23,905 nucleotides of DNA from a virus (UHGV-0095783), one strand, 5' to 3'. Numbered from the stretch's first letter, positions 1,391 to 7,109 are shown. A program made the numbers and translations. Notes: generated from the sequence alone by a model not told the origin.

Positions 1391-2816
1391 TTTTTATGCG
1401 CCGCCCCATAGCATCGAGGCAGAGCAGGCGGTGATTGGTGGATTGCTTCTGGATGATGACAGCAGTGAGCGCGTCCAGAAAGTTCTGGCGATGCTGAAGC
1501 CTGATTCATTTTACAGCCGACCACACAAAATCCTTTTCGAAGAGATAACCAGAATGCACCGGGAGCAAAAGCCAGTAGATGGCCTGACGCTTTTCGATGA
1601 ACTGGAGCGTAAATCGTTAACGGCGTCTGTTGGCGGTTTTGCTTATATCGCTGAGATCGCAAAGAACACGCCAAGCGCAGCAAACATCGTTGCCTATGCA
1701 ATGCAGGTTCGTGAAACCGCAATGGAACGCTACGCCATCAACCGCATGACTGAAGCGACGGAATTGCTCTATTCCCGCAACGGAATGACTGCAACGCAGA
1801 AGTACGAAGCTATTCAGTCGATTTTCACGCAACTGACAGACCATGCAAAAACCGGATCGCGTCGCGGCCTTCGTTCATTTGGTGAGGTCATGGAAGACTG
1901 GGTTAGCGACCTTGAGAAGCGATTTGACCCATCAGGCGAACAACGGGGAATGAGCACAGGGATCCCATCGCTGGACAGGATGCTGTCACCGAAAGGTCTG
2001 GTGAAAGGCTCTCTGTTTGTCATTGGCGCTCGCCCTAAGATGGGGAAAACGACGCTATACAGCCAGATGGCAATCAACTGCGCAGTGCATGAGAAAAAGC
2101 CCGCTCTGATGTTCAGCCTTGAAATGCCAGGTGATCAGATACTGGAAAAACTGGTAGGGCAGAAGTCTGGTGTTAACCCGAATATTTTTTACCTTCCGGC
2201 GACAAATGACGCTGATGACGGCTATCAGGGTGATTACGATGGTGACTTCAACAGGGCGATCGAAACAGCCAATCGCTTGAGTGAAATCGACCTGCTTTAC
2301 ATCGACGACACGCCGGGATTATCTCTGGCTCAAATCGTCAGCGAAAGCCGTCGAATCAAGCGAGAAAAAGGATGTGTTGGCATGATTCTGGTCGATTACC
2401 TGACACTAATGACCGCTGAGAAGGCCGATCGCAACGACCTTGCTTACGGCATGATCACCAAAGGACTGAAGAACCTTGCCAAAGAGCTTGATTGCGTTGT
2501 TGTGCTTCTGACACAGCTTAACCGCGCATTGGAAAGCCGAACCAATAAACGCCCATTACCAAGTGACTCGCGAGATACAGGGCAGATTGAACAGGATTGC
2601 GATTATTGGGTCGGGATCCATCGTGAAGGTGCTTTTGATGACAGCGTTCCTCCTGGTGAAACCGAACTAATCCTTCGTCTCAATCGTCATGGCAATACCG
2701 GCACGGTGTATTGCATTCAGGCAAATGGCGCTATTTATGACACAGACCAACAGTCTGCTGAAATGCGCCGACGTGAACGCGAGGAACCGCAGTCCAAGAA
2801 GAAAGGAGGATTCTGA
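1380..2816 (+). CDS. replicative DNA helicase, DnaB family (P22 gene 12-like)
   Basis: N-terminus PPHSIEAEQAVIGGLLLD…GGFAYIAEIAKNTPSAANIVAYA parallels E. coli DnaB as recalled; Walker A GARPKMGKT. ATG 1380 preferred (gaggg SD 9 nt upstream); the track ORF opens at GTG 1365. Overlaps the initiator stop. Confidence 0.9.
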   Translation: MTDNFYAPPHSIEAEQAVIGGLLLDDDSSERVQKVLAMLKPDSFYSRPHKILFEEITRMHREQKPVDGLTLFDELERKSLTASVGGFAYIAEIAKNTPSAANIVAYAMQVRETAMERYAINRMTEATELLYSRNGMTATQKYEAIQSIFTQLTDHAKTGSRRGLRSFGEVMEDWVSDLEKRFDPSGEQRGMSTGIPSLDRMLSPKGLVKGSLFVIGARPKMGKTTLYSQMAINCAVHEKKPALMFSLEMPGDQILEKLVGQKSGVNPNIFYLPATNDADDGYQGDYDGDFNRAIETANRLSEIDLLYIDDTPGLSLAQIVSESRRIKREKGCVGMILVDYLTLMTAEKADRNDLAYGMITKGLKNLAKELDCVVVLLTQLNRALESRTNKRPLPSDSRDTGQIEQDCDYWVGIHREGAFDDSVPPGETELILRLNRHGNTGTVYCIQANGAIYDTDQQSAEMRRREREEPQSKKKGGF

Positions 2817-2846
2817 TGACCGTCTACATCACTGAGATAATAACAG

Positions 2847-2875
2847 GGGCTATTTACACAGTAGCCCTTTTTTAT
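2847..2875 (+). terminator. rho-independent terminator after the helicase gene (tR2-like position)
   Basis: 6-bp stem gggcta/tagccc (2847-2852 with 2862-2867), 9-nt loop, then a T7 run at 2868-2874. Confidence 0.6.
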
Positions 2876-2900
2876 TGGATTAAGAACGAGGGGGATCCTG

Positions 2901-3113
2901 ATGGACACCGTTAACGGAATGTGTTCAGACGCACCGCGTGCCAAAAAATGTAAGTGCGGAAAATCACCGACAATATTCGACATGGAGAACGGGTGCCAAA
3001 TCTACTGCGCTAACCACGCTGTTGTGGCGGCCGCGAATTATCGCAGTGCGGTAACGGAGTGGAATAACCTGAAATCTGTTAGAGAGGGAAGTCATGAAAA
3101 AACTAACCTTTGA
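2901..3113 (+). CDS. small Cys-rich protein; possible Lar-family restriction-alleviation protein
   Basis: 70-aa ORF with a CxCG…CxxxC…HxxV cluster and a following AVTEWNN motif that resemble the Lar zinc-ribbon family as I recall it. Sits where lambda has ren, between the replication genes and ninB. The family call is tentative. Confidence 0.45.
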   Translation: MDTVNGMCSDAPRAKKCKCGKSPTIFDMENGCQIYCANHAVVAAANYRSAVTEWNNLKSVREGSHEKTNL

Positions 3114-3534
3114 AATTCGATCTCCAGCACATCAGCAAAACGCTATTCACGCAGTACAGCAAATCCTTCCAGACCCAACCAAACCAATCGTAGTAACCAT
3201 TCAGGAACGCAACCGCAGCTTAGACCAAAACAGGAAGCTATGGGCCTGCTTAGGTGACGTCTCTCGTCAGGTTGAATGGCATGGTCGCTGGCTGGATGCA
3301 GAAAGCTGGAAGTGTGTGTTTACCGCAGCATTAAAGCAGCAGGACGTTGTTCCTAACCTTGCCGGGAATGGCTTTGTGGTAATAGGCCAGTCAACCAGCA
3401 GGATGCGTGTAAGCGAATTTGCGGAGCTATTAGAGCTTATACAGGCATTCGGTACAGAGCGTGGCGTTAAGTGGTCAGACGAAGCGAGACTGGCTCTGGA
3501 GTGGAAAGCGAGATGGGGAGATCGGGCTGCATGA
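3094..3534 (+). CDS. ninB: NinB recombination protein
   Basis: 146-aa translation is essentially the lambda NinB sequence as recalled. Confidence 0.9.
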   Translation: MKKLTFEIRSPAHQQNAIHAVQQILPDPTKPIVVTIQERNRSLDQNRKLWACLGDVSRQVEWHGRWLDAESWKCVFTAALKQQDVVPNLAGNGFVVIGQSTSRMRVSEFAELLELIQAFGTERGVKWSDEARLALEWKARWGDRAA

Positions 3535-4058
3535 CTATCAAAGCAAATACGCCAGCACACGACAAGGACTGCTGGCAAACGCCGCTTTGGCTTTTTGATG
3601 CACTGGATATTGAGTTTGGATTCTGGCTGGATTCGGCAGCGAGCGACAAAAATGCTCTGTGTGCTCACTGGCTAACTGAGGCCGACGACGCGCTCAATTC
3701 TGAGTGGGTAAGCCACGGTGCAATCTGGAATAACCCACCGTACAGCAATATCAGGCCGTGGGTGGAAAAAGCCGCTGAGCAGTGCATACAACAGCGACAG
3801 ACGGTAGTGATGCTTGTGCCAGAGGATATGTCAGTCGGATGGTTCAGCAAGGCTCTGGAGAGTGTCGACGAAGTTCGCATTATCACTGATGGACGGATTA
3901 ATTTTATCGAACCATCGACAGGGCTGGAGAAGAAGGGAAACAGCAAAGGCTCCATGCTGCTGATTTGGCGACCGTTCATCAGTCCTCGACGGATGTTTAC
4001 TACCGTATCCAAAGCGGCATTGATGGCGATCGGGCAGGGCGTCAGGAGGGCAGCATGA
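3531..4058 (+). CDS. phage DNA N6-adenine methyltransferase (Dam type)
   Basis: ATG 3531 overlaps the ninB stop (ATGA). NPPY motif (…[11 protein letters not shown]…) and WQTP…[11 protein letters not shown]-terminal region typical of phage Dam methylases; occupies the ninC/ninD position. Confidence 0.8.
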
Positions 4059-5211: not shown

Positions 5212-5860
5212 TGGCAGCAAATACCGAAATATTTGGGTAGTTGGCGATCTGCACGGATGCTACACGAACCTGATGAAAAAACTGGAGACGATTGGATTCG
5301 ACACCCAAAAAGACCTGCTTATCTCGGTTGGCGATTTGGTCGATCGCGGTACAGAGAACGTTGAATGCCTGGAATTAATCACATTCCCCTGGTTCAGAGC
5401 TGTACGTGGAAACCATGAGAAAATGATGATTGATGGCTTATCAGAGCGTGGAAACGTTAATCACTGGCTGCTTAATGGCGGTGGCTGGTTCTTTAATCTC
5501 GATTACGACAAAGAGATTCTGGCTAAAGCTCTTGCCTATAAAGCAGAAGAACTTCCGTTAATCATCGAACTGTTGAGCAAAGATAAAAAATATGTCATCT
5601 GCCACGCCGATTATCCTTGTGACGAATACGAGTTTGGAAAGCCAGTTGATCATCAGCAGGTAATCTGGAACCGCGAACGAATCAGCAACTCACAAGACGG
5701 GATCGTGAAAGAAATTAAAGGCGCGGACACGTTCATCTTTGGTCATACGCCAGCAGTGAAACCACTCAAGTTTGCCAACCAGATGTATATCGATACCGGC
5801 GCAGTGTTCTGCGGAAACCTCACATTGATTCAGGTACAGGGAGAAGGCGCGTGGGCATAA
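5189..5860 (+). CDS. ninI: Ser/Thr protein phosphatase (lambda NinI / PPase-like)
   Basis: Metallophosphatase motifs GDLHG, GDLVDRG, GNHE; translation from [25 protein letters not shown] matches lambda phosphatase as recalled. The track ORF opens 9 nt earlier at 5180. Confidence 0.9.
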
Positions 5861-6339
5861 GAGAACTAAACCTCACCAAAGAACAGCACGATTGGCTGAA
5901 TGGCTGGCTTGAACTGTGGGGGGCATGGGTTTATTCAGGTCGTCTGGAAAAGCGCATGAGCAGCGTAATAGCTAAGTTCATGGAGAGCGTAGAGCCGGGA
6001 AGAGTTATGACAAGGCCAATGTGTAATGATGATGATGGAATGTTGATTTCTCAGGTCGTCGATTCCGTCATGTACATTGACAAGAAAGCCTTTGGCATCC
6101 TCCTCAGCTACTACGCTCATGGCTCTTCCAAGCACGCCATTGCATCTTACTATCATCGCGTCGCAAGACCTCGCAAGATGTTATGCCGTGGCGGCGGGCG
6201 CATTCAAAAACCATCGCTCGCAACCTGTCGACGGGAAGTTGACGAAATCCTTAATGCCTCGTTGTTTATGATTTACCCGGTTCTGGATAGTGCGTTTAAA
6301 AATCGGAAACGTGTAGAGAAAATTAAACATGTAGCATAG
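5851..6339 (+). CDS. Q: late-gene antiterminator Q-like protein (non-lambda allele)
   Basis: GTG start overlapping the ninI stop. Located between ninI and the lysis cassette. WGAW, P-x-C-x-DDD and YY motifs resemble E. coli prophage QuuD-type antiterminators as recalled; does not resemble lambda Q. Confidence 0.65.
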
Positions 6340-6345
6340 AACGTG

Positions 6346-6380
6346 TTGACATCATTGAGCAAATGAGCAACACTATTGGC
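6346..6380 (+). promoter_or_regulatory. candidate late promoter (pR'-like)
   Basis: Consensus -35 TTGACA at 6346-6351, 7 nt after the Q stop, with a terminator ~35 nt downstream. The -10 element is not clear (cactat/aacact). Confidence 0.3.
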
Positions 6381-6384
6381 ATAA

Positions 6385-6427
6385 GCTGCCGTTAGTGACT
6401 CTTAAGTTGCAACGGTGGCTTTTTTTT
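6385..6427 (+). terminator. rho-independent terminator (tR'-like)
   Basis: 9-bp stem gctgccgtt/aacggtggc (two G-U pairs) with a 17-nt loop, followed by a T8 run at 6420-6427. Confidence 0.55.
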
Positions 6428-6431
6428 ATTT

Positions 6432-6506
6432 GGGTCAGTCGTATAAAGGTCATTACGGAAGGCTGTTAACCTTCTTATCGTGGTTCGAGTCCACGCTGTC
6501 CCGCCA
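6432..6506 (+). tRNA. tRNA-like element, anticodon GUU (Asn) by hand folding
   Basis: 75 nt. Acceptor stem 6432-6438 with 6496-6502 (6/7 pairs), U8, A14, GG in the D-loop, anticodon stem gaagg/ccttc with loop CTGTTAA (anticodon GTT at 6465-6467), 4-nt variable loop, T-arm cgtgg-TTCGAGT-ccacg, discriminator G and encoded CCA. Anticodon loop and T-arm match E. coli tRNA-Asn as recalled. Folded by hand only. Confidence 0.45.
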
Positions 6507-6785
6507 AACATGCTGGTTTAGCTCCAATGGTAGAGGTGGTAAATGCCGAGCAAAGATTACTATCTTAATCGAAGGGCTAGGCTTGCTAAGGCCGTGGAAA
6601 AGTTGGGTGGTCGTTGCGCGAGTTGCGGATCCGAATACTAATGGTCTAGTTATTTCAGACATATTCATCAATTTCAGGCTCACGGGAATCATCCGCTACG
6701 TGCTTTGTTGATAAATCCAGCCCGTGAAGCCTGACCCTTTTCAAACACACACACAGCACCATCCGGAAAATCGGAGGTGAGGCCT

Positions 6786-7109
6786 ATGAAAATGCCATAC
6801 AAACAAGATTTCATCGCTGCGCTACTTGCCGCCAAGGAGCAGGGTATTGGTGCAATGCTGGCTTTTATCATGGCGTATCTGCGTGGTCGCTATAACGGCG
6901 GCGCGGTAACAAAAACGCTAATTGATGCGCTGATGTGCGCGATGATTGCCTGGTTCGTTCGTGACCTTCTGGACTTTATCGGCCTGAGCAGCAACCTCGC
7001 CTACATAGCCAGCGTCTTTATTGGATACATCGGCACCGATTCGATCGGCAATCTTATTAAAAAACTTGCAGCAAAAAAGGCGGGAGTTGACGATGCAAAC
7101 CAGTCCTGA
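6786..7109 (+). CDS. S: holin S, lambda class I, with dual-start motif
   Basis: Translation [27 protein letters not shown]…[10 protein letters not shown]… closely matches lambda S as recalled. ATG at 6786 and ATG at 6792 give the Met-Lys-Met arrangement of lambda S107/S105. SD ggaggtga at 6773-6780. Confidence 0.9.

Follow-up and report, generated by a model that had tools for sequence, protein, structure and literature searches.

An intact phage-borne tRNA-Asn(GUU) gene behind the Q-controlled late terminator of a lambda-like prophage, next to a truncated tRNA-Thr

What is the tRNA-like sequence that lies behind the late terminator of this prophage, and what might a lambdoid phage gain from it there? 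The question concerns a 23,905-base stretch of DNA, referred to here as the window, which as a whole is a lambda-like prophage with head and tail genes approximately 97% identical to those of lambda and with a phage 21-type Q module. A preliminary description had proposed a tRNA-like element with anticodon GUU and had left three options for it: a phage tRNA that functions, a copy that has degenerated, or what recombination at a tRNA gene left behind. Judged from its sequence, the element at 6432-6506 is confirmed as an intact phage-borne tRNA-Asn(GUU) gene and a true phage gene. It lies among the following features.

5851-6339, + strand: Q antiterminator gene of phage 21 type, a 162-aa open reading frame (Pfam Phage_antitermQ, 87.2 bits)
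6346-6381, + strand: late promoter pR' with QBE ATTGAGCAAATGAGCA (6354-6369) and a start at about 6381 (alignment to phage 21)
6383-6431, + strand: tR' intrinsic terminator, a 39-nt hairpin (6383-6421) and then U8-A-U3 (6420-6431) (fold and homology)
6432-6506, + strand: tRNA-Asn(GUU) gene of 75 nt with CCA encoded (ARAGORN, RF00005 and identity with annotated phage genes)
6512-6535, + strand: non-functional 5' stump (nt 1-24) of a phage 21-type tRNA-Thr(UGU) (identity to phage 21)
6543-6641, + strand: HNH endonuclease gene stub of 32 codons and a stop, MPSKDYYLNRRARLAKAVEKLGGRCASCGSEY followed by the stop, equal to residues 1-32 of the KL53 HNH protein
6636-6637, no strand: point at which 1,035 bp of the KL53-type arrangement are deleted (L002 alignment)
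6786-7109, + strand: lambda-family holin gene, the first lysis gene of the late operon (Pfam Phage_holin_3_1, 103.5 bits)

ARAGORN called a single tRNA in the 23.9-kb window, a tRNA-Asn with anticodon GTT at 6432-6506 (+). Infernal matched 6432-6503 to the Rfam family RF00005 over model positions 1-71 of 71, with 55.3 bits, where the gathering score is 29, and an E-value of 1.3e-9 that refers to the whole window, both strands, and all 4,227 families; two non-standard pairs are marked in this match. The segment 6432-6506 belongs to RF00005 by a score above the gathering threshold, coverage of the full model, and the independent ARAGORN call, so that both programs bear out the element as first described. 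Read 5' to 3', the gene runs GGGUCAG-UC-GUAU-AAAGGUCA-UUAC-G-GAAGG-CUGUUAA and, after this anticodon loop, CCUUC-UUAU-CGUGG-UUCGAGU-CCACG-CUGUCCC-G-CCA. The acceptor stem GGGUCAG/CUGUCCC contains the mismatch U4.U69 and the D stem GUAU/UUAC contains U13.U22, which are the two U-U mismatches that had been noted, one in each stem. The D loop contains GG, the anticodon loop CUGUUAA provides U33, the anticodon G34 U35 U36, and A37, and the T loop UUCGAGU is followed, beyond the T and acceptor stems, by the discriminator G73 and then CCA. All conserved and tertiary positions are present (U8, A14, G18G19, U33, R37, UUCRANY, and G53-C61), and A15 and U48 can form a Levitt pair. The 75-nt length, encoded CCA, cloverleaf, and invariant positions listed in the preliminary description were thus all recovered, and folding of the 75 nt alone with RNAfold gave a cloverleaf-like minimum free energy structure at -21.6 kcal/mol. 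The element also lies directly after the terminator as described, at a distance of 4 nt from the 8-T run rather than five, a trivial correction. The identity elements of E. coli AsnRS are G34, U35, U36, and the discriminator G73. This set is complete in the phage sequence, and since all four elements are present the tRNA should be charged with Asn by E. coli AsnRS and should decode AAC and AAU.

The tRNA-Asn sits at the head of a late transcription unit of phage 21 type. The Q protein is 98-100% identical to 80 relatives in viral contigs and its counterpart is the phage 21 antiterminator CPT_21_63; relatives at 98-100% identity are all that the Q-protein scan of viral contigs returned, which makes them useful for mapping junctions and not for covariation. 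In the phage 21 record (OL657228.1), the antiterminator gene is followed by the pR' -35 element, a two-part Q-binding element, the -10 element, the start site, a sigma-dependent pause element, the terminator, tRNA-Asn at the next base, and tRNA-Thr 5 nt further. The window is collinear with this record from Q to the tRNA and approximately 99% identical. It differs by one substitution in the pR' region, where -35, QBE, -10, and start are annotated in phage 21, and by one extra T in the U-tract of a terminator that is otherwise identical to the annotated one. The tR' hairpin (6383-6421) has a folding energy of -20.2 kcal/mol (z = -5.82), and 0 of 200 shuffled sequences were as stable. A simple terminator scan made no call in 6200-6900, though tR' is supported by folding and homology; the scan missed it because the stem is bulged and is excluded by the scan rules. 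The first lysis gene downstream encodes a lambda-family holin, and PGAP labels it 'phage holin, lambda family' at an E. coli locus that is 100% identical.

A generic sigma-70 scan found no promoter-like sites in 6200-6900, a scan in which pR' itself was also uncalled. The lack of promoter-like sites in this interval, together with the strong tR' upstream, points to Q-dependent, late transcription of the tRNA. From its position we infer that tRNA-Asn is probably made only after Q antitermination. It would be transcribed from pR' only upon Q-enabled read-through of tR', that is, during late lytic growth but not in a lysogen. A cut by RNase P at G1 would then separate the tRNA from the terminator hairpin and leader, and exonucleases would trim its 3' end back to the encoded CCA. 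The trailer in phage 21 is just 5 nt, and RNase P would also cut there at tRNA-Thr. Since this downstream RNase P site is gone in the window, 3' maturation of tRNA-Asn may be impaired or less efficient. Whether such tRNAs are excised from late mRNA is not known according to the authors of the phage L study (PMC8022706), and the significance of tRNA-Asn is described as not clear in the SfI study (PMC3636060).

We found the same gene across many phages. Base for base it equals the tRNA-Asn that is annotated in phage 21 (CPT_21_64), Sf6, and phage L, 100% identical over 75 nt and in the same position, which speaks for the first of the three options. It occurs at an identity of at least 99% in 40 phage records, and is shared with Sf6, SfI, phage L/ST64T, HK446, mEp506, and JLK-2012. 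The gene order of phage 21 (OL657228.1) is likewise the same, with a Q21-type antiterminator, pR' and QBE, tR', and the tRNA. Across 6300-6535, the window is 98-99% identical to phage 21, SfI, JLK-2012, and phi458, in which Q, tRNA-Asn, and tRNA-Thr are annotated. From the start site to tRNA-Asn, phage 21 of E. coli, Sf6 of Shigella, and phage L of Salmonella have one sequence, except for the start base and the length of the T-run. Of the 5,426 complete genomes of E. coli, 893 show a match to some part of 6340-6800, and the exact arrangement of this interval occurs in only 2; over its whole length, a prophage in E. coli C 236-04A shows 100% identity, and PGAP annotates tRNA-Asn there. The gene is therefore already known and annotated, by PGAP and in the records of phage 21, Sf6, SfI, and phage L. 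Descriptions of a tRNA-Asn after Q reportedly go back to the work on the late region of phage 21. The SfI paper notes the same finding for Sf6, ST64T, PS3, and phage 21 (PMC3636060), and phage L carries two tRNA genes at the 5' end of its late operon (PMC8022706). The remark in the preliminary description that some lambdoid phages have tRNA genes between Q and S is correct, with phage 21, Sf6, and phage L as examples. P22 had been considered as a carrier of tRNA-Asn and tRNA-Thr after gene 23 and was ruled out, since P22 itself has no tRNA genes (PMC8022706); the P22-like carriers are Sf6, L/ST64T, and SPN9CC. One point at which the window and phage 21 part is the lysis cassette, which has a lambda-family holin in the window and a pinholin in phage 21. 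What the present analysis adds is the anatomy of the neighbourhood (the stump of tRNA-Thr, the stub of an HNH gene, and a deletion of 1 kb) and a testable hypothesis for the tRNA-Asn.

Is the phage gene a copy of a host gene? The host tRNA-Asn(GUU), encoded by asnT/U/V/W, has the CUGUUAA loop, T loop, inner T stem, G73, and CCA in common with the phage tRNA and presumably shares its synthetase and codons. The likeness of the anticodon loop and T-arm to E. coli tRNA-Asn that had been noted holds in the alignment to K-12 asnT (L204:1050-1125), where the anticodon loop, T loop, and inner T stem are identical. So does the unlikeness of the acceptor stem and D-arm, to which the anticodon stem has to be added. 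Overall, 44 of 75 bases are identical in the alignment (approximately 60%). The D loop of the phage tRNA is one base shorter before GG and its variable loop has 4 nt versus 5 in the host; it carries U4.U69 and U13.U22 and lacks U39, and the CNG motifs of asnT (CGG at 28-30 and CCG at 40-42) are absent from it. By this comparison, the phage tRNA-Asn is not a copy of host asnT and is only a distant relative.

Diverged tRNAs were collected by a degenerate DNA pattern scan of viral contigs followed by ARAGORN, which yielded 43 distinct GTT tRNAs. The commonest allele is that of the window, at 126 loci, a count in which some contigs occur twice. Contigs of 90-280 kb gave a broader set with the same unusual D arm, GUAU-AAAGGUYA-UUAC, and in the phage database the GUAU/UUAC D arm is common to annotated tRNA-Asn of T4-like and jumbo phages. 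Among 32 distinct family sequences, 92.4% of cells pair versus 66.7% in shuffles, and 18 of 21 pairs changed on both sides; the covariation score is 0.649 versus 0.10-0.18 for slid partners and was reached by 0 of 500 shuffles, figures that are informative for the stems only because the collecting pattern fixed loops and spacing. The 13:22 pair is unpaired, with the U13.U22 mismatch, in 27 of the 32. Alleles that are 87% identical (L132 and L169) keep U4.U69 while the neighbouring pair 5:68 changes from C-G to A-U and 6:67 from A-U to G-C. Since both mismatches are kept in relatives, U4.U69 despite compensatory changes next to it, they are conserved features and not decay, which argues against the degenerate copy that had been offered as the second option. 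These data indicate that the phage tRNA-Asn is a member of a phage-borne lineage with covarying stems. Approximately half of the minor prophage alleles have stem-breaking changes or changes at U33 or G73 (including U33A and G73U), so the constraint on the tRNA is not absolute.

Decay is instead found immediately downstream. Phage 21, Sf6, and SfI have an intact tRNA-Thr(UGU) 5 nt after tRNA-Asn, whereas the window stays identical to phage 21 and Sf6 only as far as 6535, so that tRNA-Thr breaks off after its first 24 nt, and the 3' two-thirds of tRNA-Thr was found nowhere in the window. No second tRNA or tRNA-like fold was found in 6507-6700 at E <= 10, where sn2903 and permuted tmRNA scored far below thresholds. 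The two-gene cassette, which in phage 21 has an intact tRNA-Thr(UGU) 5 nt downstream, is thus present in the window as a half cassette. The third option, a recombination remnant, fails for tRNA-Asn and holds for its neighbour: the remnant in the region is the 24-nt tRNA-Thr stump (6512-6535). The stump lies within the interval covered by the preliminary description, which did not mention it.

From 6536 on, the window matches the prophage of E. coli KL53 and the viral contig L023, which have the tRNA-Thr stump followed by an intact HNH gene. The KL53 counterpart of the stub encodes a 141-aa HNH endonuclease (L002:2703-3128; Pfam HNH, 23.4 bits), and the ribosome-binding site GAGG of the stub spans the tRNA-Thr junction at 6535/6536 (GGTAGAG|GTGG). 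A clean insertion of HNH into tRNA-Thr, or an intron-like event, was considered and ruled out, since no 3' part of tRNA-Thr follows the HNH gene in the KL53-type locus; its absence there too indicates that the HNH segment replaced tRNA-Thr and did not interrupt it. A 1,035-bp deletion with a 2-nt microhomology at its junction (window 6300-6637 equals L002 2461-2797, and window 6636-6789 equals L002 3833-3985) then reduced the HNH cassette to the 32-codon stub.

We surveyed 78 Q21-type loci for the point at which homology to phage 21 ends. This point is nt 1 of tRNA-Asn at 17 of the 78, and in the two of these that were examined (L018 and L027) there is no tRNA and homology resumes after tRNA-Thr. 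It is nt 24 of tRNA-Thr, as in the window, at 4 loci, the 3' end of tRNA-Thr at 7, and further downstream at 44. The second slot of the cassette is variable and holds a 21-type tRNA-Thr, a hybrid tRNA-Thr followed by tRNA-Gly(UCC), or, in phage L, a 'Leu(UAA)'; the sequence of the hybrid switches after approximately nt 27. Among the loci surveyed, tRNA-Thr was never seen without tRNA-Asn. The tRNA-Asn is the first gene of a cassette between tR' and the lysis genes in phage 21-type late modules, and the tRNA cassette is a discrete, dispensable mosaic unit.

What might this tRNA do? AriB cleaves the tRNAs for Lys (anticodon UUU), Thr (anticodon UGU), and Asn (anticodon GUU) between positions 40 and 41; a UAAU motif at 36-39 is conserved before the cut, U39A abolishes cleavage of tRNA-Lys, and T5 variants of all three tRNAs jointly neutralise PARIS (PMC12409363). 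P2 Old cuts paired CNG motifs in the anticodon stem, placed in the figure legend at nt 28-30 and 40-41, and cleaves tRNA-Asn(GUU) more slowly than tRNA-Thr(UGU); the tRNA-Thr(UGU) of phage 21 resists Old, rescues cells, and protects against P2 Old, and UGU tRNAs alone were enriched in the Old suppressor screen (PMC12445682). The phage anticodon GUU is that of the host tRNA-Asn, which both AriB (PMC12409363) and P2 Old (PMC12445682) cleave. The host anticodon arm, G27-C-G-G-A31/U39-C-C-G-U43, contains CGG at 28-30 and CCG at 40-42, and its AriB site is UAAUC|C. In the phage arm, G27-A-A-G-G31/C39-C-U-U-C43, neither strand has a CNG, and the corresponding site reads UAACC|U. The changes at the AriB site are U39C and C41U, positions at which relatives vary and for which the determinants were defined on tRNA-Lys and tRNA-Thr. 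We hypothesize that the tRNA-Asn, which is without the published cleavage motifs, may be a nuclease-resistant spare. It would survive host or prophage tRNA nucleases and supply Asn-tRNA during late protein synthesis. For an intact, late, Q-dependent phage tRNA-Asn, a spare that survives tRNA-cutting defences in late translation is the role that we favour, at somewhat less than an even chance.

The phage 21 cassette consists of exactly the two non-Lys tRNAs attacked by these related Toprim nucleases. The tRNA-Thr(UGU) of phage 21 resembles tRNA-Asn in being its cassette neighbour, in having an anticodon whose host tRNA is cut by OLD-family nucleases, and in its altered anticodon stem; it serves another amino acid and has experimental support, whereas the role of tRNA-Asn is read from sequence. 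It is conceivable, though we regard it as a rather doubtful extension, that the Asn/Thr pair behind tR' is a two-part counter-defence against P2 Old and PARIS AriB in which tRNA-Asn is the cleavage-resistant spare and not an aid to codon usage. The targets would be OLD-family Toprim nucleases of competing P2-like prophages and P4-like satellites. With the Thr partner destroyed in this prophage, the Asn half alone would be left, and a partial value of tRNA-Asn by itself would explain why it is intact after the loss of tRNA-Thr. The tRNA-Asn(GUU) of phage T5 likewise differs from the host AriB site at positions 39-41; its acceptor, D, and T arms are different from those of the window gene, and T5 is virulent and transcribes its tRNAs from their own promoters, whereas the window gene belongs to a temperate phage and lies behind a Q-controlled terminator. 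As the nearest characterised relative, the T5 tRNA was rejected because it is not close in sequence.

Several observations keep the proposal of a resistant spare tentative. A molecule that is approximately 40% diverged from asnT is expected to have some change at 39-41, so the stem differences are not specific evidence. Related tRNA-Asn of big phages keep UAAUC|A, and allele L132 has a host-type anticodon stem. Furthermore, tRNA-Asn is a secondary target of both AriB and Old, and a tRNA made only after Q is no help for early genes or for Q itself if the nuclease fires early; the Q gene contains 3 AAU codons and 1 ACA codon. It is this divergence throughout the molecule, the varying relatives, the secondary place of Asn, the UGU-only screen, and the timing after Q that hold the reading at the level of inference.

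An alternative role would have nothing to do with defence systems: the gene may add to the pool of Asn-tRNA, especially for AAC, during the synthesis of late structural proteins. We consider this improbable but far from negligible. A place at the start of the late operon suits this role, and the AAC share of Asn codons in the window is 66% in late genes and 49% in early genes, with 11 AAC and 4 AAU in the capsid gene. However, Asn codons are not enriched in the open reading frames of the window (AAC 21.4 and AAU 14.0 per 1000). Usage in E. coli K-12 is approximately 21 AAC and 18 AAU per 1000, and since the window is at about the E. coli average, codon usage lends supplementation little weight. 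E. coli has four asn tRNA genes, so tRNA-Asn is not rare, and the cassette is absent from many phages of Q21 type (17 of 78 loci). A comparable arrangement exists in Stx-converting lambdoid phages such as 933W, where ileZ-argN-argO lies downstream of Q, likewise at the head of a Q-dependent late transcript; these tRNAs read codons that are rare in E. coli, which makes supplementation plausible there and not for Asn. The ileX case in Stx-converting lambdoid phages is cited in the SfI paper, in which no Asn codon bias was found for SfI (PMC3636060). In the major capsid gene of phage L, on the other hand, 24 of 25 Asn codons are AAC, and its authors suggest supplementation of the pool (PMC8022706).

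Less probable again, in our view, is that the gene is a neutral passenger, intact by descent, which hitch-hikes with an exchanged pR'-tR' leader and whose identity reflects recent horizontal spread. The terminator and tRNA are 100% identical across phages of E. coli, Shigella, and Salmonella, while the adjacent 3' end of Q is strongly different (overall identity across the region is 88%, and what differs lies upstream of the start site), and an identical terminator and tRNA beside a divergent end of Q are the mark of a mosaic block exchanged in recent times. The minor alleles with stem-breaking, U33A, and G73U changes, the visible decay of the tRNA-Thr and HNH neighbours, and the dispensability of the cassette agree with this reading. 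Against it, one allele dominates, at 126 loci (some contigs counted twice) and at 99% identity or more in 40 phage records, and spans three host genera and virions of both the lambda-like and the P22-like type; in L132 and L169, which are diverged alleles, compensatory changes preserve the fold; and tRNA-Asn survived two rearrangements, one of which started 6 nt downstream of it. Very improbable is a role in RNA processing, in which an RNase P site severs the hairpin and leader or stabilises the 5' end of the mRNA and decoding is secondary. Such a role would fit the tRNA start at the base right after the terminator U-tract in every genome that carries tRNA-Asn, but the late operons of cassette-less Q21-type phages and of lambda work without a tRNA, and a signal for processing alone could do without the GUU anticodon, G73, the encoded CCA, and the full set of tertiary-pair positions. 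Hardly credible at all is host DNA or an att-site remnant, a partial or duplicated asn tRNA gene left by integration or excision. Here tRNA genes are common integration sites, and a truly truncated tRNA does lie 6 nt downstream, yet the gene is full length, is just approximately 60% identical to asnT, sits within the late operon leader a long way from any integrase, and recurs unchanged in the genomes of free phages. These last two readings, a purely RNase P-related processing role and a remnant of host DNA or of an att site, are effectively excluded.

Among the roles considered, a nuclease-resistant spare tRNA ranks first as the most likely, ahead of codon supplementation and of a neutral passenger. 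The 2025 work on Old, PARIS, and tRNA-Thr turns what was an old annotation curiosity into a testable hypothesis on competition between temperate phages, and the window, with Asn intact and Thr destroyed, is a natural half cassette that might serve as a ready-made genetic control.

Comparison of the window with phages Sf6 and L revealed an abrupt change in conservation between 6300-6380 and 6381-6535, at the late transcription start. The 3' end of the gene for Q, the late antiterminator, and the promoter with its Q-binding element (QBE) diverge strongly between the window and both phages, whereas from the start site on all three share one sequence through leader, terminator and tRNA-Asn, except for the first base and the length of the T-run. 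A different QBE specificity was inferred by the authors of the phage L study (PMC8022706).

We found that mosaic junctions in viral contigs with a phage 21-type Q module (L004-L083, coordinates taken relative to the QBE) are concentrated at tRNA boundaries. In 17 of these loci, nt 1 of tRNA-Asn is the exact point at which homology to phage 21 stops, and in the two of the 17 that were examined (L018 and L027) there is no tRNA and the homology picks up again after tRNA-Thr. Further breaks lie at nt 24 of tRNA-Thr (four loci) and at its 3' end (seven loci). The Asn+Thr tRNA pair acts as a discrete cassette that can be inserted. The second tRNA slot of the cassette is a recombination hotspot. Some loci (L020, L060 and L062, approximately 158-311 nt after the QBE) hold a hybrid tRNA-Thr(UGU), in which approximately 27 nt of phage 21-type sequence pass into a different Thr sequence, and tRNA-Gly(UCC) comes next; some of the hybrid genes were missed by ARAGORN. 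In the 'tRNA-Leu(UAA)' in the second slot of phage L (L206:914-985), only the first 13-20 nt are shared.

In the window, the second slot and the DNA that follows it contain these features:

6512-6641, stump of phage 21-type tRNA-Thr(UGU), nt 1-24, joined at 6535/6536 to the 5' part of an HNH endonuclease gene (ribosome-binding site and codons 1-32)
6636-6637, 1,035-bp deletion with 2-nt microhomology, relative to 2798-3832 of the E. coli KL53 prophage locus (L002)

The KL53 prophage (L002:2703-3128) has the HNH endonuclease gene (141 aa) intact, as does viral contig L023; the deletion removed most of this gene from the window, together with approximately 700 bp of non-coding DNA 5' of the holin gene. 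The tRNA-Thr(UGU) of phage 21 is a published anti-P2-Old tRNA (PMC12445682). Since its counterpart is reduced to 24 nt, the window prophage has lost this function. In phage T5 (L207, 28000-48000), the HNH endonuclease genes hegA, hegC and hegD are interspersed in the tRNA cluster, and two overlap tRNA genes. Because this interleaving parallels the KL53-type prophage, whose HNH cassette cut into tRNA-Thr, it suggests that HNH genes commonly home beside phage tRNA genes.

Position 69 of tRNA-Asn, the partner in the U.U mismatch, varies freely (U, C or G). A minority of prophage and contig copies (L037/L050, L111/L135, L177, L040, L049 and L023) carry U33A, G73U or broken stem pairs, changes that are probably inactivating. 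Unannotated copies of tRNA-Asn nt 1-24 only, with 96% identity, occur in Stx2 phage 1717 (FJ188381.1, 24158-24181) and LC645408.1 (27017-27040). The 24-nt piece in some Stx2-converting phages is apparently a further truncated remnant of the Asn+Thr cassette.
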